The notes: a model not told the origin generated them from the sequence alone. A DNA stretch of 64,000 nucleotides from an uncultured Peptococcaceae bacterium (GCA_937897635.1 CALCQI010000025.1:53749-117748); one strand, 5' to 3'. Positions 7,643 through 63,770 are shown, counted from the stretch's first letter. Numbers and translations: made by a program.

Positions 7643-8485
7643 TTAGAATTCCTGTGGCAAGCCTTCCAGTTCAGCCATGGTGAATACGGGGCCGTCCAGG
7701 CAAATATATTTACTGCCGATATTGCAACGTCCGCATTTACCAATACCGCATTTCATCCTCATTTCCAAGGTAGTGATAACCTGGTCATTAGAGAAGCCCA
7801 TTTTGGTAAGGCTATCTAAGCAGAATTTGATCATGATGGGAGGTCCACATAATACAACCATCCGGTTATCGGGTTTGAAAGCTAATTCTTCCAAATATGC
7901 GGGCACAAAGCCAACGTGGCAAGCCAGCTCCTCGTCATCACAGTCTACCGTGATATGAACTTTAGTATCCTTCATAGCAGGCCAGTTAGTATAAAGGTCT
8001 TCTTTGAATACCAAGTCTTTAGCACTGCGGGCACCGTAAAGGATGTCTATTTTACCATAATCTTCACGGTTTTCAAAAGCATAACGGATAAAAGAACGTA
8101 CAGGCGCTAAACCGATACCACCGCCGATAAACAGCATATCCTTGCCCTTGCAGGCTTCCACGGGGAAAGTATTGCCATAAGCTCCGCGCACACCTACCTG
8201 CTGGCCTACACTCATTTCATGCAGGGCATCGGTAAGCATACCGCAGCGTTTGATAGCAAAATCCAAATAATCCTCGCCTTTGGCGGTAACGGAGAACATA
8301 CCTTCACCAACACCTATCAGAGAGAACATGCCCAATTGGCCGGGCATGGGATCGAATGGCTTTTTGCCGTCCAATGTTTGTACCCTGAAGGTTTTAGTAT
8401 CAGGAGTTTCATCAGTTATTTTAATAACATTGCAAATTTGCGGCACCAAAGGATTTTCGCCACAAGTACATTCATGATTAGTCAT
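7643..8485 (-). CDS. flxA: FlxA-like FAD/NAD(P)-binding oxidoreductase subunit with a C-terminal [2Fe-2S] site (HydG/AsrB/sulfide-dehydrogenase-beta-like).
   Basis: Ferredoxin-NADP-reductase-like fold ('…RVQTLDGK…', 'MLFIGGGIGLAPVRS') and a C-terminal 'CGIGKCGRC' cluster motif. Last gene of the hdr-flx operon, overlapping the upstream gene. Confidence 0.75.
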   Translation of the reverse strand: MTNHECTCGENPLVPQICNVIKITDETPDTKTFRVQTLDGKKPFDPMPGQLGMFSLIGVGEGMFSVTAKGEDYLDFAIKRCGMLTDALHEMSVGQQVGVRGAYGNTFPVEACKGKDMLFIGGGIGLAPVRSFIRYAFENREDYGKIDILYGARSAKDLVFKEDLYTNWPAMKDTKVHITVDCDDEELACHVGFVPAYLEELAFKPDNRMVVLCGPPIMIKFCLDSLTKMGFSNDQVITTLEMRMKCGIGKCGRCNIGSKYICLDGPVFTMAELEGLPQEF

Positions 8486-9530
8486 TGCTGCCAGCCTCCT
8501 TTAATGCTCCCACTTTATCGATAAACATCGTAATATCAAGGTCTACGGGGCAATCGGCAACACAACGGCCGCAACCCACACAAAGAGAACCTTTACCATA
8601 GCGGTCTTCAAAATAGGCCAGTTTATGCAGGAAACGGTTGCGCACACGTTCCTTTTTACTGGGACGTGGATTATGGCCACCCGCCATTCTGGTATATTCG
8701 GAGAACATGCAGGAATCCCAGCAGCGGAATTTATAGCCTTCATTGCCGCATTCTTTGCCCTCGATATCAAAACAATAGCAGGTTGGGCAAACATAAGTGC
8801 AAGTACCGCAGCCAATGCATTTTTGAGCAGTTTCCTGCCAAATATCGCTTTCAAACATTTTTACATTCATTAATTTTTTCTGCACACCATCCATATTTAC
8901 TTTTAAGGTGCACTCCAAAGCAGCGGCTTCACCATCCCCTTCTTCCAATAAGGGTTTCAGAAGGTTAACCAAAGCTTCGCCTTTTTCGGTTTGGGCTTTT
9001 ACGGCATAATAATCCCCTAAGTCGTTAAGCTGAACATCCGCGGTAGGTGCAGCTACAGGGTTTAAGCCCATAGAATCGCAGAAACAGGTAGGCAAAACCT
9101 TAGTGCAGCCAATAGCTACAGTTGTAAGGTTTTCTTTTTTCCTGGAGTAGAAGCTGTCTACATAACCGCGGGTAAGGAAAACCTCATCCATGCAATCTAT
9201 AGAGTGCATATCACAGCTGCGGATACCAAAAATGATTTGCTTATCGGTTTCTTTGATTTCTTCAAGGCTTTCCACCTGGGTAAGCCTGGTTTTGTATTTA
9301 TACATTTTTTCCGTTTGCGGGAAAAGGGCATCCTTGGGAGGCAACAGCGTATTTACGGCATCCATGGCCAATTCGCCCTCTGCACCCCAAGGCGCAAATT
9401 TGGTAACTCCTTCTATTTTCATAGGCACAAGTAAATTAGCTTCCTTGGCCATTAAATCGAAGGCCTGTTGTAATTTATTTTTCGCTAGTTTCAATTTTGG
9501 CACCCCCCTACATATACTCTTCATGGTCAT
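8478..9530 (-). CDS. flxB: FlxB-like iron-sulfur subunit (AsrA/HydB-like, 4Fe-4S dicluster).
   Basis: 'CIGCGTCTYVCPTCYC' and 'CVGCGRCVADCP' ferredoxin motifs, 350 aa. Matches the beta subunit of sulfhydrogenase / anaerobic sulfite reductase subunit A. Confidence 0.7.
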   Translation of the reverse strand: MTMKSICRGVPKLKLAKNKLQQAFDLMAKEANLLVPMKIEGVTKFAPWGAEGELAMDAVNTLLPPKDALFPQTEKMYKYKTRLTQVESLEEIKETDKQIIFGIRSCDMHSIDCMDEVFLTRGYVDSFYSRKKENLTTVAIGCTKVLPTCFCDSMGLNPVAAPTADVQLNDLGDYYAVKAQTEKGEALVNLLKPLLEEGDGEAAALECTLKVNMDGVQKKLMNVKMFESDIWQETAQKCIGCGTCTYVCPTCYCFDIEGKECGNEGYKFRCWDSCMFSEYTRMAGGHNPRPSKKERVRNRFLHKLAYFEDRYGKGSLCVGCGRCVADCPVDLDITMFIDKVGALKEAGSND

Positions 9531-10362
9531 CTAATTTATAGGTGCCCAACGGAGGTTTAACTTCAGTGTTCATGCCAGCTTCATATTCACCGAACAGTTC
9601 ATTGGCGTCTTTCAGAAGCTTGCGGTTCAATTTCATAAGGGGAAGGCCTACAGGACATACGCGTTCACATTCACCGCATTCAATGCAGCGATCGCCAATG
9701 TGATAAGCACGGGTCAAACCATAAACCTGGTTTTCGGCACGGTTGTTCTGTTTACCCTGCCAACCTACCCTGTACTGATCCACATAACATTCACGGCAGT
9801 TGCAAGCCGGACAAACATTGCGGCAAGCATAGCAGCGGATGCATTTATCGTATTGCTTGGCCCAGAATTCATAACGTTCATCTGCACTTAAGGCTTCCAT
9901 AGCTTCTACATCTTTGAAGCGGTCGGGGTAGCCTTTTTCCTGTACGGGTTCACCAACCATTACATCAGCTTCCAGTGGGTTATGGTGCATACATTCAATA
10001 CACTTTTTAACCATTTCGCCTGTAACAGGATCTTTTTTGCCTTCACAGGGCAAACCAATGAGATAAACATTTTCCCTTTTTAGCTGATTATCTTGGATAA
10101 GACGGTTAACGGCACGGGAATCACAACCACGCACACATAAACCGATTTTCTTTTCGGGGTACATATTATCCATAGTATATTTGGCCAAAGTATTCAGGCA
10201 GTATTCATTCCAAACCAGTTCATCAACTTTGGCGGGTTCTTTTACAAATACGGGGCTGGTTTTATTAGTACGGCCTTTGCCCCAGCCTATTATATAACCT
10301 ACTTCACCGCTTTCCAAAAGCTTTTTGGCGGTTTCTCTCAATTTAGCCTGCATATCGCTCAT
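9508..10362 (-). CDS. flxC: FlxC-like polyferredoxin / iron-sulfur subunit.
   Basis: Multiple Cys clusters: 'CVRGCDS', 'CEGKKDP…CIECMHHNP', 'CIRCYACRNVCPACNC' and 'CIECGECERVCPVG'. Its RBS GGAGGGG lies inside the 3' end of the preceding mvhD-like gene. Confidence 0.65.
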   Translation of the reverse strand: MSDMQAKLRETAKKLLESGEVGYIIGWGKGRTNKTSPVFVKEPAKVDELVWNEYCLNTLAKYTMDNMYPEKKIGLCVRGCDSRAVNRLIQDNQLKRENVYLIGLPCEGKKDPVTGEMVKKCIECMHHNPLEADVMVGEPVQEKGYPDRFKDVEAMEALSADERYEFWAKQYDKCIRCYACRNVCPACNCRECYVDQYRVGWQGKQNNRAENQVYGLTRAYHIGDRCIECGECERVCPVGLPLMKLNRKLLKDANELFGEYEAGMNTEVKPPLGTYKLDDHEEYM

Positions 10363-10794
10363 TTAGTTCCCCTCCTTAAATTTGGTGTTGGGGCCTAATG
10401 CCGCTACATCAGCAGTAACTTTTTCAATAGTTTCTTTAAATTTGCCGGCCTCGGAACCGGAAATCCAACGAGCTTGGAAGCGGCCGGGTTCAATACCGTT
10501 ATATTGTAAAAATCTTTGCATCATCAAGAAGCGACGACGTGTGAAGTAATTGCCACTAACATAGTGGCAGTCGCCGGGGTGTCAGCCGGCCACCAAAATA
10601 CCGTCAATGCCTTTTTGGAAAGCACGCAGCACAAATTGGGGGTTTACCCTGCCGGAACAGGGAACACGCAATACGCGTACATTATCCGGATATTTCATCC
10701 TATTCAAGCCTGCCAAGTCTGCACCGGCATAAGCACACCAGTTGCAGCAGAAAGCTAAAATTTTAGGATTCCAGTTTCCTTCTTTTACAGACAC
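10363..10794 (-). CDS. flxD: MvhD/FlxD-like [2Fe-2S] protein with an in-frame UGA (selenocysteine) at 10582-10584. The ORF track truncates it at the UGA.
   Basis: Read-through translation gives '[52 protein letters not shown]…', which matches the conserved MvhD core (xGCxxGDCHYxxGN) with Sec at the first Cys position. A 7-bp stem-loop (tgccact/agtggca) begins 12 nt after the UGA at 10551-10569, which fits a bacterial SECIS. Confidence 0.7.
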
Positions 10795-12764
10795 AGCGCA
10801 TCCACCTCCTCTAAGATCTGGCCGTTGGTATAACCCAACAAATCAATAGCACCGGGACGGCAGGCAACTACGCAGGCACCGCAGCCTTGGCATAAACCGG
10901 TATTTACGGATGCTACTTTACGTTTTACCCATTTACCGTCTTCACGACTGTCTATTTCTTTCAACTCGATTGCTTTATAAGGACAGCATGCCGCACAGAA
11001 ACCGCATCCCGAACATTTTTCCGTATTCACATGGCTAATCATGGGGTCGGTATCCATTTCGTCTTTGCTGAAAAGTGCGCACACTTTAATAGCAGCAGCA
11101 GAAGCCTGAGCAACCGTATCTGGAATATCCTTGGGTCCTTGACAAGTACCTGCCAGGAAAACACCGCCCGTATGGGTTTCCACAGGACGTAATTTGGGGT
11201 GAGCTTCCTGAAGCCAACCATCTTTGTCCATGCCTGCACCGATCATCTGGGCAACCCTGGTAGTATCAGCGGAAGGAACCATAGCAGTTTCAAGAACTAC
11301 CAAATCTGCTTCCACTACCACATTTTTGCTTACTAAAGTATCTTCACCGCAGCAGAACAGCTTACCGTCTTCCTCATAAATCTTGGAAATACGGCCGCGT
11401 ACATAAACTGCACCGTCATGCAGGGTTTTCATGTAAAACTCTTCATAAGCTTTACCCGGAGTACGAACATCCATATAGAATACATAAGCCTGGCTGTCAG
11501 GGCATTTTTCCAGTACTTGGTGAGCATGCTTGGCAGCATACATACAGCAGGCACGAGAGCAGTAAGACCTGCCTTTATTGGGATCACGGGAGCCAACACA
11601 TTTTACGATAACTACCGATTTAGGAGTTTTGCCGTCGGAAGGACGAACAATTTTACCTTCAGTAGGGCCTGAAGCATTGCTCATACGCTCAAACTGCAAA
11701 CCATCTATAACATCGGGATATTTGCCGTAACCATATTCACCGTAAAGTTTAGCCCAGTCGATAAGATCATAACCTGTGGCCATTACGATGGCACCGAAAG
11801 TTTCGGTAACATATTTATCCTGGTCTTCAAAGTCTATGCAACCCAAAGGACAAACTTTGGCACAAATACCGCATTTACCTGTTAAAAGCTTACGGCAGCT
11901 TTGATTATCAATAACAGGTTTACTGGGAACGGCCTGTGGGAAAGGTTTGTAAATACTGGTACGCTTACCCAAACCTTGGTCAAATTCACTAGGTACCTTG
12001 GTAGGACATTTAGTTTCACAAAGACCACAGCCTGTGCAAACAGAATGGTTTACATATTTAGCTTTTTGTCTAATTTTAACTTGGAAGTTACCTATGTAAC
12101 CTTGAACATCTTCTATTTCACTGTAAGTCATTAATTCAATATTGGGGTGCTGCGCCGCAGCAACCATTTTAGGTGCGCTAATTCAGGCAGAGCAGTCTAA
12201 TGTAGGGAAGGTTTTGTCCAACATTGCCATTTTGCCGCCGATAGTAGCTTCTTTTTCCACTATCACTACTTTATGACCGGCATCCGCAATGTCCAAAGCC
12301 GCCTGTAAGCCTGCTATACCACCTCCGATCACCAATGCTCTTTTATTTATGGGAATTGTGGAAGTATACAAAGGCTCGTTTTTAGTTACCTTTGCAACCG
12401 CCATTTTTACAAGATCTGTAGCTTTTTGGGTAGCGCCTTCTTTATCGGTATGTACCCAAGCAACTTGCTCACGAATATTCGCTACTTCCAATAAATATGG
12501 GTTCATGCCTGCGTCGGCAAGGGTTTTACGAAAAGTAGCCTCATGCATACGGGGAGTACAGGCAGCAATAACTACCCTATCCAAACCTTGCTCTCTGATA
12601 GCCTCTTTAACCATTTCCTGACCGGGCTCCGAACACATATATTTATATTCTGTAGCAAAAACCACACCCGGCATTTCCTTGGCAGCTTCAACCACTTGGC
12701 CTACATCTATACCGGCAGCGATATTAGTACCACAATGGCATATAAATACACCTACACGCCTCAT
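10785..12764 (-). CDS. hdrA: Heterodisulfide reductase subunit A (HdrA), a selenoprotein. It is a single 659-codon ORF with an in-frame UGA at 12183-12185; the ORF track splits it into 12183..12764 and 10785..12167.
   Basis: The N-terminal piece '[19 protein letters not shown]…[16 protein letters not shown]…TLDCSA' stops at a TGA exactly where HdrA normally has Cys/Sec (TLDCSxC/U). The same frame continues '[11 protein letters not shown]…' into the C-terminal piece, which carries the ferredoxin clusters. A stem-loop ggttgctgcggcgcagcacc lies 17 nt after the UGA (12146-12165) and resembles the E. coli fdhF SECIS (GGUUGCAGGUCUGCACC). Confidence 0.8.
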
Positions 12765-13717
12765 GCTGTTTCGCCTCCATTTTTAGTATTTTCCTGTTTT
12801 GCCTTAGCAATAGGCTTAACAGGTTTTTTAGCCGAAACTTCTTCCACAGGTTTGGGAATCAAGGCTTTTTCGGCTACTTCCACAGCGGGGAAGAAGTGTT
12901 TATTTATACCTATCGCTTTGGCACCCGAACCTAAAGCCATAGCCAATAATTCGGTAAAGAAATAAACAGGGATATTCAAGCGAGGATCACGCCTGGACAT
13001 TTCCTTCATGCGCATATCCAAATTGAGCATGCATAAAGGACAAGCCGTTACTATAGCCTCGGCACCATTGCTTACCGCATTTTTAAGTAAACGGTAAATG
13101 ATTTCCCGCCCTACTTTAGGAACAGATACTTGGTGGCTAGCGCCGCAGCATTCGGTTTTGAATGCCCATTCCACAGGGGTAGCACCTACCAATTCCATTA
13201 ACTTATCCATGCTTTGAGGGTTTTCAGTATCATCGAACTGCACAACACCTGCAGGACGTACCAAAAGACAGCCGTAATAGCTGGCAACTTTCAGGCCGTT
13301 CAAGGGTTTGGCAATGTTAGCTTTGATAGCTTCCATTGCTTCAGGACGGCTCATTACGTCCAAAAGGCAGTAAACATCGTTTTTAGCCTTGTAGGGAATT
13401 TCCAAAATATCTTCTATATGTTTTTGGTTTTTTTCCGATTCCCTTACATATTTAACAGCTGTTTTCATTCTGCCGAAGCAAGCAGCACAAGGTACTGCAA
13501 CATCCAAATCCATATCTTCGGCCAAAGCCAAATTACGGGCAGGCAAAGCTATTGAAAGATCATGATTAGTAAGGTGAGCGGCAGAAGCACCGCAGCAGTT
13601 CCAATCAGGAGTTTCAATCAGCTCCATACCTATTTTTTTCGCCACAAATCGGCTGGAAAGCTCAAATTCCACACCGCTTCCTGCCGAAGAACAACCGGGA
13701 TAATATGCATATTTCAT
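12761..13717 (-). CDS. hdrB: Heterodisulfide reductase subunit B (two CCG domains).
   Basis: 'YYPGCS', 'CCGAS…' and a second 'CCGASHQ' cysteine-rich CCG motif, 318 aa. Stop/start overlaps with hdrA and hdrC. Confidence 0.8.
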   Translation of the reverse strand: MKYAYYPGCSSAGSGVEFELSSRFVAKKIGMELIETPDWNCCGASAAHLTNHDLSIALPARNLALAEDMDLDVAVPCAACFGRMKTAVKYVRESEKNQKHIEDILEIPYKAKNDVYCLLDVMSRPEAMEAIKANIAKPLNGLKVASYYGCLLVRPAGVVQFDDTENPQSMDKLMELVGATPVEWAFKTECCGASHQVSVPKVGREIIYRLLKNAVSNGAEAIVTACPLCMLNLDMRMKEMSRRDPRLNIPVYFFTELLAMALGSGAKAIGINKHFFPAVEVAEKALIPKPVEEVSAKKPVKPIAKAKQENTKNGGETA

Positions 13718-14283
13718 TATTTATTACCCCCTTCCAGGCATTTGGCCATAATTTTTCTTACGCTTGCTTTATCCTTAACCATATGCGGACGGATACGAAT
13801 CTTACGGTTGAAATATAAATGTGGGGCAGACCAAACATCCTGCATAAGGTGGCCTGTGGTAAAATTATACAAGCCCATCAAAACCATTTCATGAGATTTG
13901 CCGAAATAACGGATATTGTTCAGGAACAAATCATTAAAACGATTCAATTCCTTAATGGGTGTAATACCCTTCTTTTTAGCTTCCTGCCGAACAGCTTCCA
14001 TTAAAGAAGGCAAATCGACTTGATGCGGACAACGGGTAACACAGGTTTGACAAGTGGCACACAACCACGGAGTGCGGGCTTTAAGTACTTCATCCCACAT
14101 TCCAAGCTGCATGTAGCGAATGACTTCACGCGGTTGCAAGTCCATAGCCAAAGCTACAGGACAACCGGCTGAGCATTTGCCACATTGATAGCAGTCAGCA
14201 AGGTTTACGCCGGACTTAGCCTGCATATCCCCAATAACTGATTTGTTCTTGGCTGATGCTTTGGTTAAATCAACTACTACCAT
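13717..14283 (-). CDS. hdrC: Heterodisulfide reductase subunit C (4Fe-4S dicluster). Start re-placed to 'MVVVDL'.
   Basis: 'CYQCGKCSAGCP' and 'CATCQTCVTRCP' motifs. GAGGAG sits 5 nt upstream of the ATG at 14283. The 5' end carries a GGGG…CCCC hairpin. Confidence 0.75.
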   Translation of the reverse strand: MVVVDLTKASAKNKSVIGDMQAKSGVNLADCYQCGKCSAGCPVALAMDLQPREVIRYMQLGMWDEVLKARTPWLCATCQTCVTRCPHQVDLPSLMEAVRQEAKKKGITPIKELNRFNDLFLNNIRYFGKSHEMVLMGLYNFTTGHLMQDVWSAPHLYFNRKIRIRPHMVKDKASVRKIMAKCLEGGNK

Positions 14284-14567
14284 AATATCTCCTCTTCCTC
14301 CTTTTTGAACACAGGGGTTACGGCCCGTCCCCATTGGTTCTGCGTAATTAAATATAAAAAGAATTTATAGGCAAAGCCTTTTTTACGCACATCATTTATG
14401 AATTCTTTACAAATACTGCTTTTCCTGCTAATATATACGATTTTTGTAATTTTTTATTGTATTTTTTATGTTTTTCGACAGATGGAATTTTATTAGTATT
14501 TATACGCAATAAAAGTATAACATATGTATACTGTATTTTCATTAGCAATTTATGCTAAGAATAATAT

Positions 14568-15793: not shown

Positions 15794-16342
15794 ATGAGTA
15801 CAAACAATATACACATCGTAAAAAAAGGGGATACCCTTTGGACCATTGCCAAAGAGCATTGTTTGACCCTGGATGAGCTTTTGGAGGCAAACCCCCAAAT
15901 CACCAACCCGAACCTGATTATGGCAGGACAGGAAATACTTATTCCCGTATCACCAACCCCCTGCCCGCCAATTATTGAAACACCCGCCCCCAATAAAGGT
16001 AATGATACAGAGAAAGTGCCGCCCATACCGGGGGAACGTCCACTTATTTATGTGGTAAAACCCGGTGATACCATGTACCGCATTGCCAAAGGCTTTAATA
16101 TGGAGCTTAAGGAACTTTTGAAAGTAAACCCACATATAGCAAACCCCGATGCCATAAATGTTGGCGATAAACTCTTTATCCCCAAGGCAAAAAAACTTTC
16201 CCTACTTAATATACCCATGCCTAACTTGAATTTAAGGAAAGATAACAGCAATAGCTGCCCCTATAACGGCGACAGCCACGTTTGCCCATGGCTGCAATCC
16301 AAAGGGATAATTTGCCCACATTGCGGCAGGCCCATAAAATAA
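15794..16342 (+). CDS. Protein with two LysM domains and a Cys-rich C-terminal tail.
   Basis: Two LysM repeats ('HIVKKGDTLWTIAKEH…LLEANPQI' and 'YVVKPGDTMYRIAKGF…LLKVNPHI') and a tail 'CPYNGDSHVCPWLQSKGIICPHCG'. RBS AAGGAGG. Confidence 0.8.
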   Translation: MSTNNIHIVKKGDTLWTIAKEHCLTLDELLEANPQITNPNLIMAGQEILIPVSPTPCPPIIETPAPNKGNDTEKVPPIPGERPLIYVVKPGDTMYRIAKGFNMELKELLKVNPHIANPDAINVGDKLFIPKAKKLSLLNIPMPNLNLRKDNSNSCPYNGDSHVCPWLQSKGIICPHCGRPIK

Positions 16343-55191: not shown

Positions 55192-56733
55192 TTAAGCGCG
55201 CACCAGCCGATCCAGGCTGCGGTACTGAACAGCCTCCGCTATATGGCTTGCACCTATCATATTCTCACCTGCCAGATCCGCAATGGTACGGGCAACTTTT
55301 AATAATCTATCATGCGCTCTGGCACTGAGATTAAGGCGTTTAAAAGCCTCGGCAAGTAAAATTTCAGCATCGAACTGCATTTTACACCATTCCTGCACGT
55401 GCTTTCTTTCCATATCCGCATTGCAGATAAGGGCAGTACCTTGAAAACGTACCTGCTGAATATTACGGGCAGACATTACCCTAGCCTTGATTTGAGCAGA
55501 GCTTTCACCTTTTGCTGTTTTGCTTATATCTTCATAGCGTACACGCTGTACATCAACGTGCAGGTCAATACGATCCAGCAAAGGCCCGGAAATCCTGTTC
55601 ATATAACGCTGTATTTGAAAAGGCGTGCATTTACAGGGTTTTAAGGGATCACCAAAATAGCCGCACGGACAGGGGTTCATAGCCGCAATCAACTGAAATG
55701 CTGCCGAAAATTGGCTGCGCCCCTGAACTCTGGCAACTGTAACCGTTTTATCCTCCAAGGGCTGACGCAAGGCTTCCAAAACATCGCGCTGGAATTCAGG
55801 CAGTTCATCCATGAACAAAACCCCGTGATGGGCAAGGCTTACTTCACCGGGTATGGGAATACGGCCGCCGCCGATGATGCTTGCGCCCGAAGCCGTATGG
55901 CGCGGCGCCCGAAAAGGCCTTTCCGTAATCAAAGGCCTTCCTAATGGCAACTCCCCCGCTATACTGTAAATCCTGGTTACCGCCAGGCTCTCATTAAGCG
56001 TAAGCTCAGGCATGATGGAGGGCAATCTGCGAGCCAGCATGGTTTTGCCGGAACCGGGCGAACCGATCATAATCATATTATGCCCACCTGCGGCAGCGAT
56101 TTCCATAGCTCTTTTAGCACCCTCTTGCCCTTTCACATCCGCCATATCGTTAACAGGCGGGGCTTGCGCTTTTGCAAGTATCTGTTGACCGTCTGCCTCA
56201 GCAGGGCTGATTTGTACATTGCCTTTCAACCAATCCGCCAAAATCAGCAAATCCGTTATACCATATACGGTAAGCTTACCTGTTAACGCCCCCTCCATAC
56301 TGTTGGCTTCGGGCAAAATAAAAGTGCTTATAGCTTCATTATGTTCAGCCGCCATTGCCATAGCCAAAACTCCGTTTACAGGCCTTACCGTACCATCCAA
56401 AGAAAGCTCGCCTACTATCAGCGCATCCAAAAACCGATTGGGTATTTCAATTTGCCCCGTAGCCGCTAAAATAGCCATTGCAATAGGTAAATCAAAATTA
56501 GAACCTTCCTTTTTTATATCGGCAGGCGCTAAGTTAACGGTAATGCGCCGCAAAGGAAACTCGAAACCTGAATTTTTAATGGCTGTGCGCACACGCTCCT
56601 TGCTTTCCCGAACCGAAGCATCGGGAAGCCCAACAATATCAAAGCAAGGCAAACCTGGGCTCACATCCACTTCCACCTTCACCATATGTGCATCCATACC
56701 AAAAACAGCACAACTATTAACTTTAGCCAGCAT
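55192..56733 (-). CDS. comM: YifB/ComM-family Mg-chelatase-like AAA+ ATPase.
   Basis: 'MLAKVNSCAVFGMDAHMVKVEVD' N-terminus, Walker A 'GSPGSGKT', and a C-terminal chelatase domain. Confidence 0.9.
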   Translation of the reverse strand: MLAKVNSCAVFGMDAHMVKVEVDVSPGLPCFDIVGLPDASVRESKERVRTAIKNSGFEFPLRRITVNLAPADIKKEGSNFDLPIAMAILAATGQIEIPNRFLDALIVGELSLDGTVRPVNGVLAMAMAAEHNEAISTFILPEANSMEGALTGKLTVYGITDLLILADWLKGNVQISPAEADGQQILAKAQAPPVNDMADVKGQEGAKRAMEIAAAGGHNMIMIGSPGSGKTMLARRLPSIMPELTLNESLAVTRIYSIAGELPLGRPLITERPFRAPRHTASGASIIGGGRIPIPGEVSLAHHGVLFMDELPEFQRDVLEALRQPLEDKTVTVARVQGRSQFSAAFQLIAAMNPCPCGYFGDPLKPCKCTPFQIQRYMNRISGPLLDRIDLHVDVQRVRYEDISKTAKGESSAQIKARVMSARNIQQVRFQGTALICNADMERKHVQEWCKMQFDAEILLAEAFKRLNLSARAHDRLLKVARTIADLAGENMIGASHIAEAVQYRSLDRLVRA

Positions 56734-57624
56734 AGCATCCTCTCCACGAAACAAAATAAATACAGCATAAGATTAAGTAAAATGCTATATAATATAGTAA
56801 CTTTTCTGCAAAAGCAGAATATTACCTGCCCCAAACTCCAAATAAATTTTCCGACACTTTAACAAAACCGCAAAACAAGCATTTTTATACAAAAATACTA
56901 CATAATATTACATATTTTCCATTTATTTTTAAAAAATAAAATTAAAAAAAGGCAAAAAATTTTTTACTTCAGATTCAGACAATTTCCCAAAAAACAGGTT
57001 GATTTACATCAATTTTCCGACAAATCAATCATTTTATCAACATTAGACAATATCTTAACATGACGTTCCGTTGAGTGGAAAGAGTTTTTTGAAAATTCTC
57101 ACATGGCAATTTAAGTGGCATTTTGCTTTCTTAATATGAAAGTTTTAAATATAAGCATCTTTATGCCCTGCTATGGTATACTGTATACAGGAATAATGAA
57201 CTCATAAAAAGGCTTGCTATTTTGGCAATAATGTATTAGAATTGTTAAAGAGATTTAACGGGTTTTCCCTGTCCCTTATCCATTTTTTCCCTCATATAAA
57301 AAATGAATAATATTTACTTAATATTGCCTACGGAAAGCTGTGTATTCTTTTTCTTGCAGATATGCTTTAAATAGCAAAAAATGGCGATAAAACACAGCTC
57401 TAACATAAAATTATATGCTGTTTCATATTCCTTCCTATTAGAAATTTCCTATTAGAAACAGGTATAAGCATCTTTGGTAGTTAATTATAACAAAGGGGTT
57501 TATTATTTGTTTGCCCCTAGGCTTTTGGAAATTTCAGAAAAAACAAATAACCTTCTCTTGTCTTTGTTTTGCTTTGGTTAGAGGATCAAGGCAAAATAAA
57601 ATATATTTTAGGAGGCGCGAAGAA

Positions 57625-59463
57625 ATGAATGGTGGTTTTATGGGAAAATTTCTGTGGGTTAATTTGACCACAGGCGCAATCGAGGTGGAAAAGCCTGATA
57701 TAAGCCTTTATAAGGATTATTTGGGTGGCTACGGTATTGGAGATAAGATACTTTACGAAAAATTAAAGCCTGGTATCGATCCTTTGGGTCCTGAAAATAT
57801 TTTAGCTTATTTACCGGGGTTGCTTACCGGTACAGGTGCACTGGTTGCTTCCCGTTTTATGGTTGTAAGCAAATCGCCTTTAACAGGTGGTATCGGTGAT
57901 GCCAACTGCGGTGGACACATTGGCGCGGAAATGAAAAAAGCAGGCTTTGACGGTATTTATTTTACCGGCCAATCCGAAAAACCGGTTTACCTTTATATTA
58001 CAGATGACCATGCAGAACTGCGTGACGCTACATCTTACTGGGGTATGACAACTTACGAAACCGAGGAAGCCTTAAGAGAGGTAACCGACCCCAAAGCAAG
58101 GGTTTCCGCTATTGGACCGGCAGGTGAAAGAATGAGCCTGCTTGCTGCTATTGTAACTGAAAAAGGCAATGTTGCCGCTCGTTCCGGCCTTGGTGCCGTT
58201 ATGGGCTCAAAAAAGCTTAAAGCTGTAGTAGTTAAAGGTTCACAAAAAGTTAAAATTGCTGATGAAGAAGCTTTCAAAGCTGCCCGCGCAAAATATACCC
58301 CGGAATTCAAAGAAGGCATGGGGAAATTATTGCGAGATTTCGGTACTGCGGCTTTCTATGAAGGCTCTGTAGAATCTGCTGATGCTCCTATAAAAAACTG
58401 GGGCGGTGTTCCCAGCGATTATCCCAATGCTGCCAAATGCGGCGCCGAAGCTCTTAAAGAAATAACTGTTAAGAAAACTCCCTGTACAGGTTGCCCCGCT
58501 GGTTGCGCACGCCTGATACAACCCAAATATACCGATGAACAAATAAAAACTATTCAATATGAATCTCAGGGCGCTTTTGGTTCAATGTGCCTGGTAGATG
58601 ATTTGGAATCCATGGTAAAAGCCAACGATTACTGTAACCGTTACGGCACCGATACAATCTCTGTAGGTGCAGCCTGTGCTTTTGCCATAGAATGTTTTGA
58701 AAATGGTTTGTTGACACTGGAACAAACCGACGGCTTGGAATTAAAATGGGGCAACGGCCCTGCTATGGCTGAGCTTGCACGCCGTATCTGCATGAGAGAA
58801 ACCTGGCTGGGTGAGCTTTTGGCAGACGGCACCTTAAAGGCTACAGAACAGATTCCCGGCTCTTTCGAATATGCCATGCAAATTGGCGGCCAGGAACTGC
58901 CCATGCACGACCAACGCTTAACTTATGGCCTTTATACTATGTATTTGGCAGAACCCACGCCGGGCAAACATACTCAAGGTACTGAGGACTATGCTCCTCC
59001 GCAAATCCCCATGCCTGAATATGATCCCGCAGGCCAGGCTGATCGTGGTGCGTCTCACAAAATGATAGAAGACTTTGCCCACGTTGTTGATGCTTTAGGT
59101 TTTTGCCTTTTTACTAATATATTCATACTTCCTTACACAAGTGCGGAAGATTTCCTAAACGCTGTTACCGGCGAAAAATATACCTTTGAAGATTTACTTA
59201 AAATAGGCGACCGTATTTCCATGCTGCGTCATGCTTTTAATACCCGTGAAGGCATTAAATTCACTGACCGCAAGGTTCCTAAACGTTTACTGAAGGCTCC
59301 CGAAAAAGAAGGTCCCCTGCAAGGCGTTGTGTTAGACCATGATCAGCTGATTGGGGATTATTTGAAGGATTCCGGTTTGGATCCTGTTACCCTTAAACCC
59401 AAAAAAGAACGTCTTTTGGCTTTGGGTCTTGATAATGTGGCATCAGAACTTTACCCGGAATAA
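57625..59463 (+). CDS. aor: Tungsten-type aldehyde:ferredoxin oxidoreductase (AOR family).
   Basis: 'GKFLWVNLTTGAIEVEKPD' AOR N-terminus and a 'CTGCPAGC' [4Fe-4S] motif. AGGAGG is 9 nt upstream of the ATG at 57625. The track start at 57511 is an in-frame artefact. Confidence 0.85.
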   Translation: MNGGFMGKFLWVNLTTGAIEVEKPDISLYKDYLGGYGIGDKILYEKLKPGIDPLGPENILAYLPGLLTGTGALVASRFMVVSKSPLTGGIGDANCGGHIGAEMKKAGFDGIYFTGQSEKPVYLYITDDHAELRDATSYWGMTTYETEEALREVTDPKARVSAIGPAGERMSLLAAIVTEKGNVAARSGLGAVMGSKKLKAVVVKGSQKVKIADEEAFKAARAKYTPEFKEGMGKLLRDFGTAAFYEGSVESADAPIKNWGGVPSDYPNAAKCGAEALKEITVKKTPCTGCPAGCARLIQPKYTDEQIKTIQYESQGAFGSMCLVDDLESMVKANDYCNRYGTDTISVGAACAFAIECFENGLLTLEQTDGLELKWGNGPAMAELARRICMRETWLGELLADGTLKATEQIPGSFEYAMQIGGQELPMHDQRLTYGLYTMYLAEPTPGKHTQGTEDYAPPQIPMPEYDPAGQADRGASHKMIEDFAHVVDALGFCLFTNIFILPYTSAEDFLNAVTGEKYTFEDLLKIGDRISMLRHAFNTREGIKFTDRKVPKRLLKAPEKEGPLQGVVLDHDQLIGDYLKDSGLDPVTLKPKKERLLALGLDNVASELYPE

Positions 59464-59573
59464 GCATTAATTTTGCTACAATAATTTCCCTTAAAAAATA
59501 TTGTTTTATTTGCTATTCAATATTCTACAGGGAAAATTTATTGCATATACAATTATATTTGGAGGCGATATTT

Positions 59574-60995
59574 ATGTCCAAAATCGATTGGAAACAAGTA
59601 GAACAATGGAACAATGAGTATGTCATTAAGTGCTTCTTAAAACAGAGCGAGTATGGTACCATGTTCATTGAAAGCACCGAAGGTGATTACCTTATCGATG
59701 CTGATGGTAAGCGTTGGTTAGACTTCTACAACCAACTTTACTGCGTAAACGCAGGCCAGAAAGTTCCTGAAGTACAGCAGGCTATTAAAGATGCTACTGA
59801 CCGTTATGGTTTTGTATGGGATATTTACACAACCGACTACAAAGCCGAAGCAGCTAAAATGATCGTCAAAGACATCCTTGGTGATAAGGGCTGGGCTTCC
59901 CAGGTTCGTTTCACTTTAGGTGGCGGCGATTCCGTAGAAGTAGCTTCCCTGATCGCACGTTTGTACACAAACAAAAACCTGATTGCTACTCGTGAACACG
60001 CTTATCACGGTGTTTCCTCAGGTGCTGTTTCCTTTACCACTATCCCCGCAAGCCGCAATAACGCAGTTACCGAAGAATATGGAAAAAGCTTAGAAGTTCC
60101 TGGTGCAGACTTCCAAGGCTCTTTCATGTGCCCTGCTCCTTTCTGCTATCGTTGCTCTTTGGGCCATACATATCCTGAATGTAAATGTGTACATGCAGAT
60201 GGTACTTTGCCCTGCGTAAAACAAACTGAAGCCGTTATTCGCAGCCACAACGTTAACCGCGTTGCTGCTATCATCACCGAGCCTGCTTTTGGTGCTGGTA
60301 CTATTATGCCTCCTAAAGAATACTTACCACAAATCCAGGATATGAAAAACCGCTTAGGTATACTTTGGATTATGGACGAAGTATTGATGGGTTGGGGTCG
60401 TTTAGGCGAATGGTTTGGCCACCAGTTATATGGCGATATCAAACCCGATATCATGACTACTGCAAAAGGTATTTCCAGCTCCAGCTTACCTTTGGGTGCT
60501 GTAATAGTAAATGAAAAAGTTGCTAAATTCTTGGCAGAAATCCGTTGGAACCACGTTTCCACCTTCTCTGGCCACCCAATCCCTGTAGCAGCTGCTGTTG
60601 CTAACATGAAATATCTGATCAAAAATGATGCTCCCGGTCATTGCAAAAAAGCCGGTGAATATTTCGGTCAGGAATTATTGGCATTAGAAGAAAAACACAG
60701 TTCTATCGGTTTAGTAGCAGGTGCCGGTATGTTCTGGCAGGTTGAATTGGTTAAAAACCGTGAAACTAAGGAACCCTTCATTGCTGATGACCGTTATCTC
60801 ACTTTTGCGGGCGACCAATCTAAATATCCTGTTCATATCATTGCTGATAAATGCGCTGAAAAAGGCGTTCTGCTTGGTGGTTTCGTACCTAATACTTTGC
60901 GTATTGGTGCTTCCTGCATGGTAGAAAAAGCTGATATGGATAAAGCTATTAACGCTATGGATTATGCGTTGACCTATTTGGAAACTCAATTCTAG
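59574..60995 (+). CDS. Class-III (omega) PLP-dependent aminotransferase.
   Basis: 'DEVLMGWGRLG' and the Schiff-base lysine 'IMTTAKG'. GGAGG RBS upstream of 59574. Confidence 0.85.
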   Translation: MSKIDWKQVEQWNNEYVIKCFLKQSEYGTMFIESTEGDYLIDADGKRWLDFYNQLYCVNAGQKVPEVQQAIKDATDRYGFVWDIYTTDYKAEAAKMIVKDILGDKGWASQVRFTLGGGDSVEVASLIARLYTNKNLIATREHAYHGVSSGAVSFTTIPASRNNAVTEEYGKSLEVPGADFQGSFMCPAPFCYRCSLGHTYPECKCVHADGTLPCVKQTEAVIRSHNVNRVAAIITEPAFGAGTIMPPKEYLPQIQDMKNRLGILWIMDEVLMGWGRLGEWFGHQLYGDIKPDIMTTAKGISSSSLPLGAVIVNEKVAKFLAEIRWNHVSTFSGHPIPVAAAVANMKYLIKNDAPGHCKKAGEYFGQELLALEEKHSSIGLVAGAGMFWQVELVKNRETKEPFIADDRYLTFAGDQSKYPVHIIADKCAEKGVLLGGFVPNTLRIGASCMVEKADMDKAINAMDYALTYLETQF

Positions 60996-61015
60996 TATTG
61001 AACTAAAAAAGGGGT

Positions 61016-61037
61016 GAGCCACCCTTAAGGGTGGCTC
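61016..61037 (+). terminator. Hairpin downstream of the aminotransferase gene; a weak terminator with no clean T-run.
   Basis: gagccaccc-ttaa-gggtggctc stem. Confidence 0.4.
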
Positions 61038-61285
61038 GGCTTCCTTTATATATCTGCTAGGCCGCATCCTATACAGATATATAAATATAGTTTTACAATG
61101 CTTAATAAGAAATCACAATCTTGCTAAAATTAGAAATAATAATACAATATTGTTCTTTCTCATTAGGCACTGTTATATAAATTACTATAGTTAAAAAGCC
61201 GCGTTTGTTTTTATCTACTGCTATTTTATTATTATCCATTTATTCAAAGTTGTTGTGAAAGTTGTTATTAAAATGGAGGTGCTTT

Positions 61286-62683
61286 ATGACAGGTTTAAAA
61301 AGAGAGATTGGTTTAATTCCTGCTATAGCAACTGCAGTAGGTATTGTTGTATCCTCTTCTGCATTGCTTATGTTAGGTCAAGGCTTTGGTTTAGGTGGCC
61401 CCGCATTTATAGTTGCTATGCTTATTGCAGCAACAGTTAACTTATGCGTAGCTTTTTCTTTTGCTGAGTTAACTTCCCTAATCCCTGCGGCAGGTGGTAT
61501 CAACCACTATACACTGCCGGCAATGGGTCGTACTGTTGGTATTTTTGCAGTTTTGGCAGGTTACTTCTTGGTATCCATTTTATCCAATGCTGCTGAATCC
61601 ACAATTGCAGGTAACGTATTGCATGACTTTTTCTTCCCCAGCATCAGCCCTACGCTTTGGGCATTTATTTTAATGACTATCCTTACATTAATCAACTTCC
61701 GCGGTGTTAAATCCTATGCTTATTCCCAAGTATTTTTAGCAGGTTCCATGATCATTTCCATGGTAATACTTTCTTGCATAGGTATATTCGGCTTAGGTTC
61801 TGGTACTCCTTTGGAAACCAAGCTTACTTTCGATATGGCTGCTGGTGGTGGCATACTAAGTATGCTGGGTATCGCTTTTTGGTTATTTGTTGGTTTGGAA
61901 TTCGTTTGCCCGCTGGCAGAAGAAATCATCAACCCACAAAGATTTATCCCCATTGCTATGATTTCCGCATTAGTTATCATCTTTATCAGCGATACTTTAT
62001 TCGGCTTTATGGCCATGAAATACTTAGGTGTTGAAGGCTTAGCCGCTTCCGGCACTCCTCACGTTGATGCTGCAAGTGCCGTTCTGGGCAGAGCCGGTCA
62101 GATTTGGATTGGTATCATCAGTATCATAGCTACAGGCTCCACATTAAATACCTTCATTGCAGCTATTCCCCGTATGCTTTACGGGATGGCTAAAGAAGGC
62201 CAGTTCCCAAGGGTATTTGCTAAAATTAACAGATGGGGCGCTCCTTGGGTTGGCGTATTACTAACATATTTGATCACCATCGTTCTCTTGGTATTCAACG
62301 ATCCTAACTCTGTTTCAATGATTTCCACCTTCGTTCTTTCCGGTTGCATCGGCTGGATGGTTTGCTATGTAATTGCTCATATTGACGTTCTCATCTTAAG
62401 GAAAAAATATCCTGATGCAAAACGTTCTTTCAAAGTTCCTTTTGGTCCTCTTCTTCCTATTTTGAGTTCCTTTGGTTTGATTTACATGATGATCTTTATT
62501 TATCCGGATGCTGACGGCAAAATCATTAATGAAGTTTCCAGCATCATCTTCAAATTTGCAGGTACTGCTTTAGGAATCTGTGCACTTTGGAGTATATTCT
62601 GGGTTAAAGTTGTCATGAAAAAACCCTTGTTTGAAACCGTTCCCATGGAAAAATTAGTAAAAGAATTGGAAGAAACAGCTTAG
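61286..62683 (+). CDS. APC-superfamily amino acid/amine permease.
   Basis: 12 predicted TM helices with an APC-like layout. GGAGGTG is 4 nt upstream of the ATG. Confidence 0.8.
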   Translation: MTGLKREIGLIPAIATAVGIVVSSSALLMLGQGFGLGGPAFIVAMLIAATVNLCVAFSFAELTSLIPAAGGINHYTLPAMGRTVGIFAVLAGYFLVSILSNAAESTIAGNVLHDFFFPSISPTLWAFILMTILTLINFRGVKSYAYSQVFLAGSMIISMVILSCIGIFGLGSGTPLETKLTFDMAAGGGILSMLGIAFWLFVGLEFVCPLAEEIINPQRFIPIAMISALVIIFISDTLFGFMAMKYLGVEGLAASGTPHVDAASAVLGRAGQIWIGIISIIATGSTLNTFIAAIPRMLYGMAKEGQFPRVFAKINRWGAPWVGVLLTYLITIVLLVFNDPNSVSMISTFVLSGCIGWMVCYVIAHIDVLILRKKYPDAKRSFKVPFGPLLPILSSFGLIYMMIFIYPDADGKIINEVSSIIFKFAGTALGICALWSIFWVKVVMKKPLFETVPMEKLVKELEETA

Positions 62684-62726
62684 TAGTATTTTAAGTTAAT
62701 TTATAGATATAAAACAAACGCGCACC

Positions 62727-62758
62727 AAAAGGAGCTCCAAAAGGAGCTCCTTTTGTTA
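62727..62758 (+). terminator. Rho-independent terminator downstream of the permease gene.
   Basis: Perfect 12-bp stem aaaaggagctcc/ggagctcctttt with a 4-nt loop, then a T-run. Confidence 0.7.
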
Positions 62759-62842
62759 TACTTAAATATTTTTATAAGAATATTATTAATATTATAGAAA
62801 ATATAGCAAAAAATTGTTAAAAGTTTATTTTTATAAAAACTA

Positions 62843-62864
62843 AAAGCCCCGTTAAGGGGCTTTT
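62843..62864 (-). terminator. Terminator downstream of ispA on the minus strand (bidirectional hairpin).
   Basis: aaaagcccc-gttaa-ggggctttt stem. Confidence 0.6.
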
Positions 62865-62885
62865 GATATATCTTTATATAATAAT

Positions 62886-63770
62886 TTAAGATTCTCTGCT
62901 GCTTAAATGCTTTACTATGGCTTTTAAGTTCTCCGCCCTTTCGCCAAAAGGCTGTAAAGCAGCTATAGCTTTACTTACCGCATCATCCGCTGCCTCAGAG
63001 GCTTTTGCCAAGCCCAGTAAAGCAGGATAAGTGGTTTTGGCATTTTTAGTATCTGAGCCTACAGGCTTACCCAGTTTGGCTTCATCTCCTACCACATCCA
63101 AAATATCATCTATGATTTGAAAACTTACCCCAAAATTATAGGCAAAAACCGTAAGAGCCTCCATTTCCTTTTCATCGGCAGCGCCCAAAATACCTGCGCT
63201 TAAAACTGCGGCATTGAAAAGCGCACCTGTTTTATTAAGATGAATATTTTTCAGTTCCTCCAAAGAAACTTTCTTGCCCTCTTTTTCAATATCCATGACC
63301 TGGCCTACAACCATGCCGTTTATACCTGCGGCAACAGCTACCTGACGGGTAGCATAAAGCAGGTGGTGCGGATCAGCATAGCAGGAAAGCATGATAGCAA
63401 AAGCATGTGTAAGCAATGCGTCCCCCGCCAAAATAGCATTGGCTTCACCATAAACCTTGTGTGCTGTAGGCTTGCCCCTGCGGTAATCATCATTATCCAT
63501 GGCGGGAAGATCATCGTGGATAAGAGAATAGGTATGAATCATTTCAATAGCGCAGGCAAAAGGCATCAACTTTTTAGTTGGAGTATCTAAAGCCTCTAAG
63601 GTTGCCAGAAACAACACAGGACGTAGCCTTTTACCGCCTGCCAGCAGGCTATAGTTCATCGCATCATAAAGTACTTGGCCTGCAGCATGCTTTTGGGGAA
63701 AAATCCCTTTCAGAGCCTTGTTTACTTCCAATGCCTTGGTCTCCAAATATTTTTTACCGCTAATCATCAT
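62886..63770 (-). CDS. ispA: Farnesyl/geranyl diphosphate synthase.
   Basis: 'LIHDDLPAMDNDDYRRGK' and 'FQIIDDILD' motifs; overlaps the xseB stop. Confidence 0.85.
   Translation of the reverse strand: MMISGKKYLETKALEVNKALKGIFPQKHAAGQVLYDAMNYSLLAGGKRLRPVLFLATLEALDTPTKKLMPFACAIEMIHTYSLIHDDLPAMDNDDYRRGKPTAHKVYGEANAILAGDALLTHAFAIMLSCYADPHHLLYATRQVAVAAGINGMVVGQVMDIEKEGKKVSLEELKNIHLNKTGALFNAAVLSAGILGAADEKEMEALTVFAYNFGVSFQIIDDILDVVGDEAKLGKPVGSDTKNAKTTYPALLGLAKASEAADDAVSKAIAALQPFGERAENLKAIVKHLSSRES

Follow-up and report, generated by a model that had tools for sequence, protein, structure and literature searches.

Can an aldehyde:ferredoxin oxidoreductase (AOR) act as the second enzyme of an amine-degrading pathway, at the place that NAD(P)-dependent aldehyde dehydrogenases (ALDHs) hold in aerobic relatives? 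This question is raised by three plus-strand genes (positions 57625 to 62683) in a stretch of 64,000 nucleotides from an uncultured Peptococcaceae bacterium (GCA_937897635.1 CALCQI010000025.1:53749-117748), which was analysed at its full length and is called the window below. The genes code for an AOR, a class-III aminotransferase (AT) and an APC-family permease, identities given in an earlier note on this DNA and confirmed by Pfam. The note had also proposed that the AT generates an aldehyde, that the AOR instead of an NAD(P)-ALDH oxidises it, and that the permease supplies the substrate. The gene neighbourhoods of related loci support this core idea, and we consider it probable that import, omega-transamination and ferredoxin-linked oxidation by the AOR form one coupled route from amine to acid. 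The best explanation of the island, as judged from its sequence and from that of its relatives, would be a small catabolic or nitrogen-scavenging unit for a primary amine or an omega-amino compound.

In the proposed scheme, the amine would be imported by the permease, and the pyridoxal phosphate (PLP)-dependent AT would transfer its terminal amino group to pyruvate, as the most likely 2-oxo acid, yielding an aldehyde and L-alanine. The single-subunit AOR, with its predicted pterin cofactor (probably containing tungsten) and [4Fe-4S] cluster, would then convert the aldehyde into the carboxylate and deliver two electrons to ferredoxin, a step that would fall to an NAD(P)-ALDH in aerobic relatives. 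Finally, an alanine dehydrogenase or transaminase that is not linked to the island would recycle the alanine. As a matter of speculation, the reduced ferredoxin might feed the Flx/Hdr genes found elsewhere in the window (Table 1).

Aldehyde oxidisers beside the aminotransferase clade

The neighbourhood of the AT was followed through one genome per GTDB species, scanned with the AT family alignment. The scan gave 80 loci, whose neighbouring open reading frames (ORFs) were clustered and whose recurrent clusters were annotated. At 42 loci the AT is at least 45% identical to that of the window, and 23 of these have an aldehyde oxidiser within 6 kb, namely an ALDH (13 loci), an AOR (9) or a molybdenum enzyme of the Mop type (1). 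Among the 38 loci below 45% identity only three have one, and the contexts are mostly unrelated (methyltransferases, a class-IV AT, a transketolase-like gene, TonB receptors); they are uninformative for the window and give no support to the taurine label that many homologues carry. Around the same AT clade, the partner is an ALDH in aerobes, where AraC-ALDH-AT-permease clusters occur, an AOR in anaerobes, and once the Mop-type enzyme. This exchange supports the view that AOR takes the place of ALDH in anaerobes.

AT and AOR genes stand together at 13 loci (the window, L100, L097, L009, L011, L014, L018, L020, L026, L027, L030, L044 and L047), which belong to Bacillota, Desulfobacterota and one Nitrososphaeria archaeon; L030 is from a Desulfallas isolate. 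The conservation in other anaerobes that the earlier note had named as a check was thus found, and it includes two gene orders besides that of the window, one of them a tight operon. The identities of these AORs to the window AOR fall into at least three bands (54-66%, around 40% and around 30%), which suggests that the enzyme was recruited repeatedly beside the AT. By a rough estimate that assumes a few AOR copies in a 3-Mb genome, an AOR would lie within 6 kb of the AT by chance in about 1% of genomes, against the 9 of 42 observed. The tight operon (L097) has a MerR-type regulator gene followed by AT (61% identity), permease (78%), AOR (66%) and a MoaD-like gene, with gaps of 82, 25 and 9 bp. 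The closest AT with readable flanks (L100, 73%) lies in the order AOR-AT-permease, as in the window, and the same order is found in a Clostridia metagenome-assembled genome (MAG; L011). The same permease family adjoins the AT at 15 of the 42 loci of the closer tier.

Further partners bear on acceptor and direction. A gene for alanine dehydrogenase adjoins the AT in L026, L027, L030, L035, L044 and L046; in L033 the distance is 6.9 kb. An aspartate ammonia-lyase whose score exceeds the equivalog cut-off is encoded within about 2.3 kb of the AT in the Desulfobacterota loci L014, L017, L018 and L020, and at a distance of about 9 kb in L009. From the adjacent alanine dehydrogenase genes an amine:pyruvate transaminase activity is predicted, and pyruvate is the probable amino acceptor in view of these genes and of the similarity to amine:pyruvate transaminases. 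A catabolic direction is likewise suggested by the ALDH-bearing aerobic versions and by the ammonia-releasing partners, alanine dehydrogenase and aspartase. Regulators (XRE-cupin, AraC, MerR-like of 413-453 aa, sigma-54 activators, LuxR) and transporters (APC, SSF, MFS, ABC) both vary from locus to locus, a variety that would be typical of a catabolic module often re-wired.

Three side observations were made in these neighbourhoods. The Mop-type aldehyde oxidoreductase, of 916 aa, is encoded directly downstream of the AT in an Oscillospiraceae MAG (L010); it belongs to the xanthine-dehydrogenase family, with two [2Fe-2S] clusters and a molybdopterin domain, and further members of its cluster of ORFs are found in L018, L048 and L082. 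The permease of L011 is split into two ORFs (179 and 304 aa), which points to a pseudogene, a frameshift or a faulty assembly. The MerR-like regulators, which have an N-terminal MerR helix-turn-helix (HTH) domain, are found with AT/permease modules whose class-III AT is of either the B. megaterium-like or the YgjG-like type; their large C-terminal domain has no match in Pfam or NCBIfam, and the L097 copy shows a stretch rich in Cys.

The aminotransferase

The best solved relatives of the window AT are the (S)-selective amine transaminases 5g09 (E 1.7e-147, residues 2-471) and 5g2p (E 1e-143), followed at a distance by the taurine:2-oxoglutarate AT 6jix (E 5e-51). Identity to the solved Bacillus megaterium amine transaminase is about 49-50% over the full length; one source labels the 5g09 sequence a Priestia megaterium transaminase. 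In an alignment of 33 family members (A1), the catalytic K298, the PLP-binding D268 and the C-terminal R443 are invariant. The enzyme is thus a predicted fold-type I omega-transaminase of the clade of the B. megaterium (S)-amine transaminase. It lies under every NCBIfam equivalog cut-off, including those of GabT and of three ATs that were rejected as its identity: acetylornithine AT (ArgD, TIGR00707, 170.8 vs 410 bits), diaminopelargonic acid (DAPA) AT (BioA, TIGR00508, 149.1 vs 405 bits) and putrescine AT (YgjG/PatA, NF008570 and TIGR03372, 151.6 vs 612 bits).

The AT also carries a motif of four cysteines (Cys4; Table 1), at least 90% conserved in A1 and present at most of 81 loci, archaeal and aerobic Bacillus members included. 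It is missing from the crystallised 5G09 and 5G2P, from a few Bacillaceae and from the proteobacterial clade. These cysteines are probably a candidate structural Zn or Fe-S site that is not visible in the available structures.

The aldehyde:ferredoxin oxidoreductase

The AOR has the AFOR_N plus AFOR_C architecture, both domains scoring well over the Pfam cut-offs, and aligns end to end with the solved AORs 9mqx (E 7.5e-112), 9g7j (E 1.7e-108) and 1aor (E 1.3e-105), whereas FOR, WOR5 and BamB are much more distant. Its CTGCPAGC (CxxCxxxC, residues 287-294) and DALGFC (489-494, with Cys494) align with C288, C291, C295 and C494 of 1AOR. Alignment to the three structures further shows that E313, H448 and both pterin-binding DxxGxD/C motifs are retained, and that Asn occupies position 338, which it does also in 9mqx and 9g7j, the two bacterial structures. 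The model of the E. coli YdhV-type AOR (NCBIfam NF007354) was rejected, with 225.7 bits against a cut-off of 868 and a match limited to the N-terminal 220 residues. The metal in the predicted pterin cofactor would probably be tungsten. No gene for an AorA- or AorC-type subunit adjoins the AOR, so that a ferredoxin-linked single-subunit enzyme is the natural reading.

A metagenome scan with the AOR protein returned three loci only, the peptide patterns being too specific. Directly 3' of the closest AOR homologues (66% identity) lies an ORF of 76 aa, MoaD/ThiS-like and ending in Gly-Gly; it is not in the window, where the AT gene comes after the AOR gene. Genes for MoaD-like, MocA, YqeC and ModC/WtpC-like proteins are present at related loci.

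The permease

The permease could be placed in the APC superfamily only (PF13520/PF00324), and no NCBIfam transporter cut-off is reached: GabP (TIGR01773, 66 vs 678 bits), PotE (TIGR04299, 59 vs 560 bits), AdiC (NF007929, 71 vs 574 bits) and the ethanolamine permease (TIGR00908, 116 vs 382 bits) were all rejected. Its family is small and has no functional names; a class-III AT stands beside 9 of the 11 homologues examined (at least 58% identity). The closest ones, from Cloacibacillus evryensis and from a MAG of the Bacillota (74-75% identity), adjoin YgjG-like putrescine ATs that reach 556 bits against the YgjG cut-off of 612, with an ALDH adjacent in Cloacibacillus.

The Cloacibacillus evryensis locus (L087) is of interest in itself. 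Its permease homologue (75%), YgjG-like AT, ALDH and MerR-like and XRE-cupin regulators are embedded in histidine-utilisation genes (urocanase, FTCD, imidazolonepropionase-like, FTHFS), and in view of these surroundings its substrate could possibly be a histamine-type or other imidazole amine.

Layout and transcription of the island

The island consists of three plus-strand ORFs, and public gene calls for identical DNA, from MAG GCA_036747175.1 (L001) and from several fermentation metagenomes, give the same boundaries; samples with this exact locus are SRR32304685, SRR32304675, ERZ724041, ERZ724035 and ERZ922859. On both sides lie minus-strand housekeeping genes, dprA, ddl, murF, a gene for an alpha/beta hydrolase and yifB upstream, and the genes for farnesyl-diphosphate (FPP) synthase (ispA), xseB and xseA downstream. 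Across the island the GC skew changes from about -0.15 to about 0, which a strand switch predicts, and the GC content of 0.40-0.44 is not anomalous. The island had been described as the only plus-strand run of the window; it is the sole run of several genes, but a LysM-domain protein gene also lies on the plus strand, so that the island is not the only plus-strand coding sequence. The statement that terminator hairpins bound it holds for the 3' side, where convergent terminators are found, and fails for the 5' side, which is an AT-rich divergent region.

Table 1. Position of genes and signals (in the window, unless a related locus is named).
Feature	Position	Strand	Remarks
Flx/Hdr-like cluster	7643-14334		contains the HdrA-like gene
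HdrA-like gene	10785-12764	-	two adjacent in-frame ORFs split by TGA (12183-12185)
LysM-domain protein gene	15794-16342	+	PF01476, 106 bits
Divergent intergenic region	56755-57624		870 bp, AT-rich, between yifB (minus) and AOR; sequence reading
Exact tandem 13-mer TTCCTATTAGAAA, two copies	57432-57458		14-bp period; about 170 nt 5' of AOR start
Leader hairpin	57563-57600		weak, A/U-rich, 17-bp; fold z -2.2; just 5' of GGAGG ribosome-binding site
AOR gene	57625-59463	+	612 aa; AFOR_N 252 bits, AFOR_C 317 bits (Pfam)
AOR-AT spacer	59464-59573	+	110 bp; GGAGG ribosome-binding site
Class-III AT gene	59574-60995	+	473 aa; PF00202, 206 bits
Cys4 motif of the AT	60144-60215	+	C191-x2-C194-x8-C203-x10-C214 (CYRCSLGHTYPECKCVHADGTLPC); alignment A1
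Stable GC-rich hairpin	61015-61038		20 nt after AT stop; z -4.25; 0 of 200 shuffles fold equally well
APC permease gene	61286-62683	+	465 aa; PF13520 and PF00324
Terminator-like hairpin after permease gene	62726-62755	+	13-bp stem; z -5.0
Convergent terminator of ispA	62864-62842	-	marks 3' edge of island
MoaD/ThiS-like ORF, L097	8824-9054		76 aa
MoaD/ThiS-like ORF, L096	8823-9053		76 aa
MoaD/ThiS-like ORF, L098	4557-4787		76 aa
MerR-HTH regulator, L097	2549-3799
MerR-HTH regulator, L012	4286-5644
MerR-HTH regulator, L087	11384-12685
MerR-HTH regulator, L090	6522-7763
MerR-HTH regulator, L099	13457-14695
Mop-type enzyme, L010	11601-14351		directly downstream of AT
Split permease, L011	4095-5536		two ORFs
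AT-permease site, L008	7432-13279		compared with 55192-62683 of the window
Cloacibacillus evryensis locus, L087	CP171104.1, 2699752-2717182		permease homologue with YgjG-like AT

The divergent region upstream of the AOR gene is presumed to be the promoter and operator region. The exact tandem repeat of TTCCTATTAGAAA within it, the sole occurrence in the 64 kb at zero mismatches, is a candidate operator, though there is no regulator gene nearby; neither such a gene nor a remnant was found in the divergent region. An Rfam scan of 56500-63100 at E<=1 gave two sub-threshold chance matches and no riboswitch or leader.

The AOR and AT genes are probably on one transcript, as proposed before from the short gap without a terminator: the terminator scan found no terminator-like hairpin in the spacer, and a ribosome-binding site is present. 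The situation differs after the AT gene, where a stable hairpin had been overlooked. Its T-run on the plus strand is imperfect, and the hairpin may act in partial termination or may stabilise the mRNA. Some 250 bp rich in promoter-like hexamers separate it from the permease gene. Together, hairpin and promoter-like sequence suggest that the permease probably has a separate or attenuated transcript, being expressed from its own promoter or via read-through of the hairpin. In L007, L008 and L100, too, the AT gene is followed by an equivalent hairpin. Apart from this hairpin and the ribosome-binding site, the AT-permease spacers of 12 loci share no RNA or sequence element; those of L007 and L008 have short operator-like stretches in common.

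Does the oxidoreductase belong to the pathway?

Several findings weigh against the coupled scheme. They are best taken together with the possibility that the three genes have no metabolic link, the AT and permease serving to scavenge amine nitrogen and the AOR being an independent general detoxifier that landed alongside them in this lineage. A Peptococcaceae MAG (L008) has, at the same chromosomal site (dprA-ddl-murF-hydrolase-yifB / AT-permease), the AT and the permease only, and a relaxed tblastn search of L008 found no AOR gene or remnant. L007 and L099 likewise have AT-permease without AOR. Conversely, of the three closest AOR homologues whose context could be read, two (L096 and L098, both 66% identical) have no AT nearby, from which it follows that this AOR clade is not dedicated to the pathway proposed here. 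AORs are moreover broad-range enzymes often viewed as detoxifiers, and the literature describes detoxification as their primary role. A single transcript is made less likely by the hairpin downstream of the AT gene, and co-transcription of all three genes is doubtful. Lastly, genes for a regulator, an alanine dehydrogenase, an aspartase or cofactor maturation are missing from the 64 kb: tblastn across the window with the regulators (MerR-like, XRE-cupin, AraC, LuxR) and with the alanine dehydrogenase, AspA, MoaD-like and YqeC proteins of related loci gave no match, and neither a tungstate transporter nor a cofactor gene was found there.

A mere accident of position is nevertheless unlikely in our judgement. 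Against it stand the 13 independent AT and AOR loci, in three gene orders, several phyla and at least three AOR identity bands, the excess of 9 in 42 over the chance estimate given above, the tight spacing in L097, and the interchange of ALDH, AOR and Mop-type enzyme at the same position relative to the AT. The AOR is polymorphic, present in the window and absent from L008, at a conserved chromosomal site. The relatives with AT and permease alone suggest that these two form the core, to which the AOR adds a second step that is optional and exchangeable, just like ALDH in aerobes. Such a picture agrees with the recruitment of any competent aldehyde oxidiser to the core, and it weakens the claim of a dedicated AOR clade. 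To the wider proposition, that AOR has repeatedly replaced NAD-ALDH as the dedicated second enzyme of omega-transaminase amine catabolism in many anaerobes (Bacillota, Desulfobacterota and some archaea), that such catabolism is the natural job of the B. megaterium-type ATs used in industry and that the Cys4 site is ancestral, we give slightly less than an even chance.

Substrate, direction and the remaining alternatives

The earlier statement that the substrate is not predictable from sequence still stands; the neighbourhoods weakly favour diamines and polyamines (putrescine, cadaverine) over other biogenic mono-amines, these over omega-amino acids, and taurine last. Four weak hints point to diamines or polyamines. 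YgjG-like putrescine ATs stand beside the closest permease homologues; in L033 and L040 the AT is flanked by HDAC-type amidohydrolases, of the acetylpolyamine amidohydrolase family, and by an MFS transporter; XRE-cupin regulators, which have the architecture of E. coli PuuR, recur among the loci; and the partner ALDHs are similar to betaine-aldehyde and aminobutyraldehyde dehydrogenases. For putrescine one may speculate that the same AT and AOR pair acts twice (putrescine to GABA, gamma-aminobutyrate, and on to succinate). These ALDHs are all generic, resembling betaine-aldehyde, aminobutyraldehyde or phenylacetaldehyde dehydrogenases under the equivalog cut-offs, and therefore name no substrate. 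The solved AT relatives prefer bulky and aromatic amines, so that arylalkyl and alkyl mono-amines are also plausible; the corresponding aldehydes are classic AOR substrates. These relatives are described as biocatalysts for amines without a carboxylate.

A taurine-specific module, in which a taurine transaminase would form sulfoacetaldehyde and the AOR would oxidise it to sulfoacetate, is suggested by the JGI label 'taurine--2-oxoglutarate transaminase' (KEGG K15372) on many homologues. One cluster-bearing locus (L018) is from Desulforhopalus singaporensis (DSM 12130), which is known as a taurine fermenter and which co-occurs with taurine in papers. A route through a transaminase and sulfoacetaldehyde dehydrogenase (SafD) exists, and NCBIfam has a SafD model. 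The module is nonetheless very unlikely. As a match of the window AT, the solved taurine transaminase 6jix is far behind 5g09, so that close similarity to a characterised enzyme of this kind (Toa/Tpa) is lacking. The automated label finds no echo in the surroundings either: the annotated flanks of about 100 loci examined showed no gene of the sulfonate pathway (Xsc, IslA, SarD, SafD, Tau transporters). In addition, the neighbouring ALDHs resemble betaine-aldehyde and aminobutyraldehyde dehydrogenases, and SafD is not among the matches listed for any of them.

The same enzymes could in principle run in reverse, the AOR reducing an acid with reduced ferredoxin, the AT aminating the aldehyde with alanine and the permease exporting the amine or importing the acid, as an electron sink or for amine formation. 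AORs are the sole enzymes known to reduce non-activated acids (PMC10413684). Transaminases are reversible, and the genome carries ferredoxin-linked Flx/Hdr-type genes. However, aerobic relatives pair the AT clade with NAD-ALDH, which is in effect oxidative only, the adjacent alanine dehydrogenase or aspartase fits ammonia release, and acid reduction at about -560 mV requires a strong pull; we hold this direction to be highly improbable. A biosynthetic AT of the acetylornithine, DAPA or glutamate-1-semialdehyde type, unrelated to its neighbours, can practically be dismissed: many class-III ATs are biosynthetic and weak sub-threshold matches to ArgD and BioA exist, but both scores are far under their cut-offs, the closest solved relative is an amine transaminase, and the close tier has transporters, regulators and aldehyde oxidisers in place of arg or bio genes, so that the biosynthetic clade which the earlier note had named as fatal to its proposal was not encountered.

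A split HdrA-like gene elsewhere in the window

Within the Flx/Hdr-like cluster, an HdrA-like gene is divided into an FAD-binding N-terminal part and a 4Fe-4S-rich C-terminal part by a TGA codon that falls in the motif LDCSA[TGA]ISAPK. Many HdrA proteins have Cys at this position, and the TGA is very likely a selenocysteine codon.

Significance and comparison with known systems

The logic of the coupled scheme will not surprise specialists; the swapping of ALDH, AOR and Mop-type enzymes turns it into a clear testable hypothesis. Guts, digesters and sediments are rich in biogenic amines and polyamines, whose anaerobic fate has been mapped less than the aerobic routes. The acid/aldehyde couple lies at about -560 mV, and its electrons are therefore able to drive hydrogen production or bifurcating complexes. 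If the scheme is true, amine oxidation would yield low-potential electrons for hydrogen formation or Flx/Hdr-type bifurcation, and the AOR would be a committed catabolic enzyme of the pathway and not a general detoxifier. The clusters with ALDH or AOR and permease would also offer a physiological context for a transaminase clade known mainly from biocatalysis.

The closest solved ATs, the amine transaminases of Bacillus (Priestia) megaterium (5G09/5G0A) and of Arthrobacter sp. (5G2P/5G2Q), have the same Lys and Asp and the invariant Arg443. They differ in lacking the Cys4 motif of the window AT and of most of the family, and they originate from aerobic organisms. They are known for their use in biocatalysis, and no defined physiological role for them was found in the literature. 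Among AORs, the Pyrococcus furiosus enzyme (1AOR) and the bacterial 9MQX and 9G7J share with the window AOR the two-domain architecture, the cluster and pterin ligands and a similar length. 1AOR and the bacterial single-subunit AORs are ferredoxin-dependent oxidisers of a broad range of aldehydes. The P. furiosus enzyme is thought to oxidise aldehydes derived from the 2-keto acids of amino-acid fermentation, and its gene, in contrast to that of the window, is not known to lie beside an omega-transaminase and a permease.

Aromatoleum aromaticum offers a precedent for the oxidation step, because its AOR oxidises aldehydes in the anaerobic degradation of benzylamine and phenylalanine (PMC10413684). 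As proposed for the window, an AOR-family enzyme there acts under anoxic conditions on an amine-derived aldehyde; however, the aldehyde is formed by quinohemoprotein amine dehydrogenases and not by a transaminase, and the AOR (AorABC) is a three-subunit, NAD-reducing filament (PMC10413684).

Finally, the order of import, transamination and oxidation is that of the routes in which a transaminase is followed by an NAD(P)-ALDH: YgjG/PatA-PatD of E. coli (putrescine to GABA), GabT-GabD, and Toa-SafD (taurine to sulfoacetate). The window differs from them in its oxidiser, a predicted ferredoxin-linked pterin/[4Fe-4S] AOR in place of an NAD(P)-ALDH, and in its AT, which is no equivalog of YgjG, GabT or Toa by its sub-cut-off scores and by its distance from 6jix. 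In full-text searches of the literature on AOR with amine or omega-transaminases, putrescine or cadaverine, and taurine, no account of a module of omega-transaminase and AOR came up. Transaminase and ALDH routes, and the part of AOR in anaerobic amine degradation, are thus already known, and the pairing of an omega-transaminase with an AOR would be a credible new variant of them.

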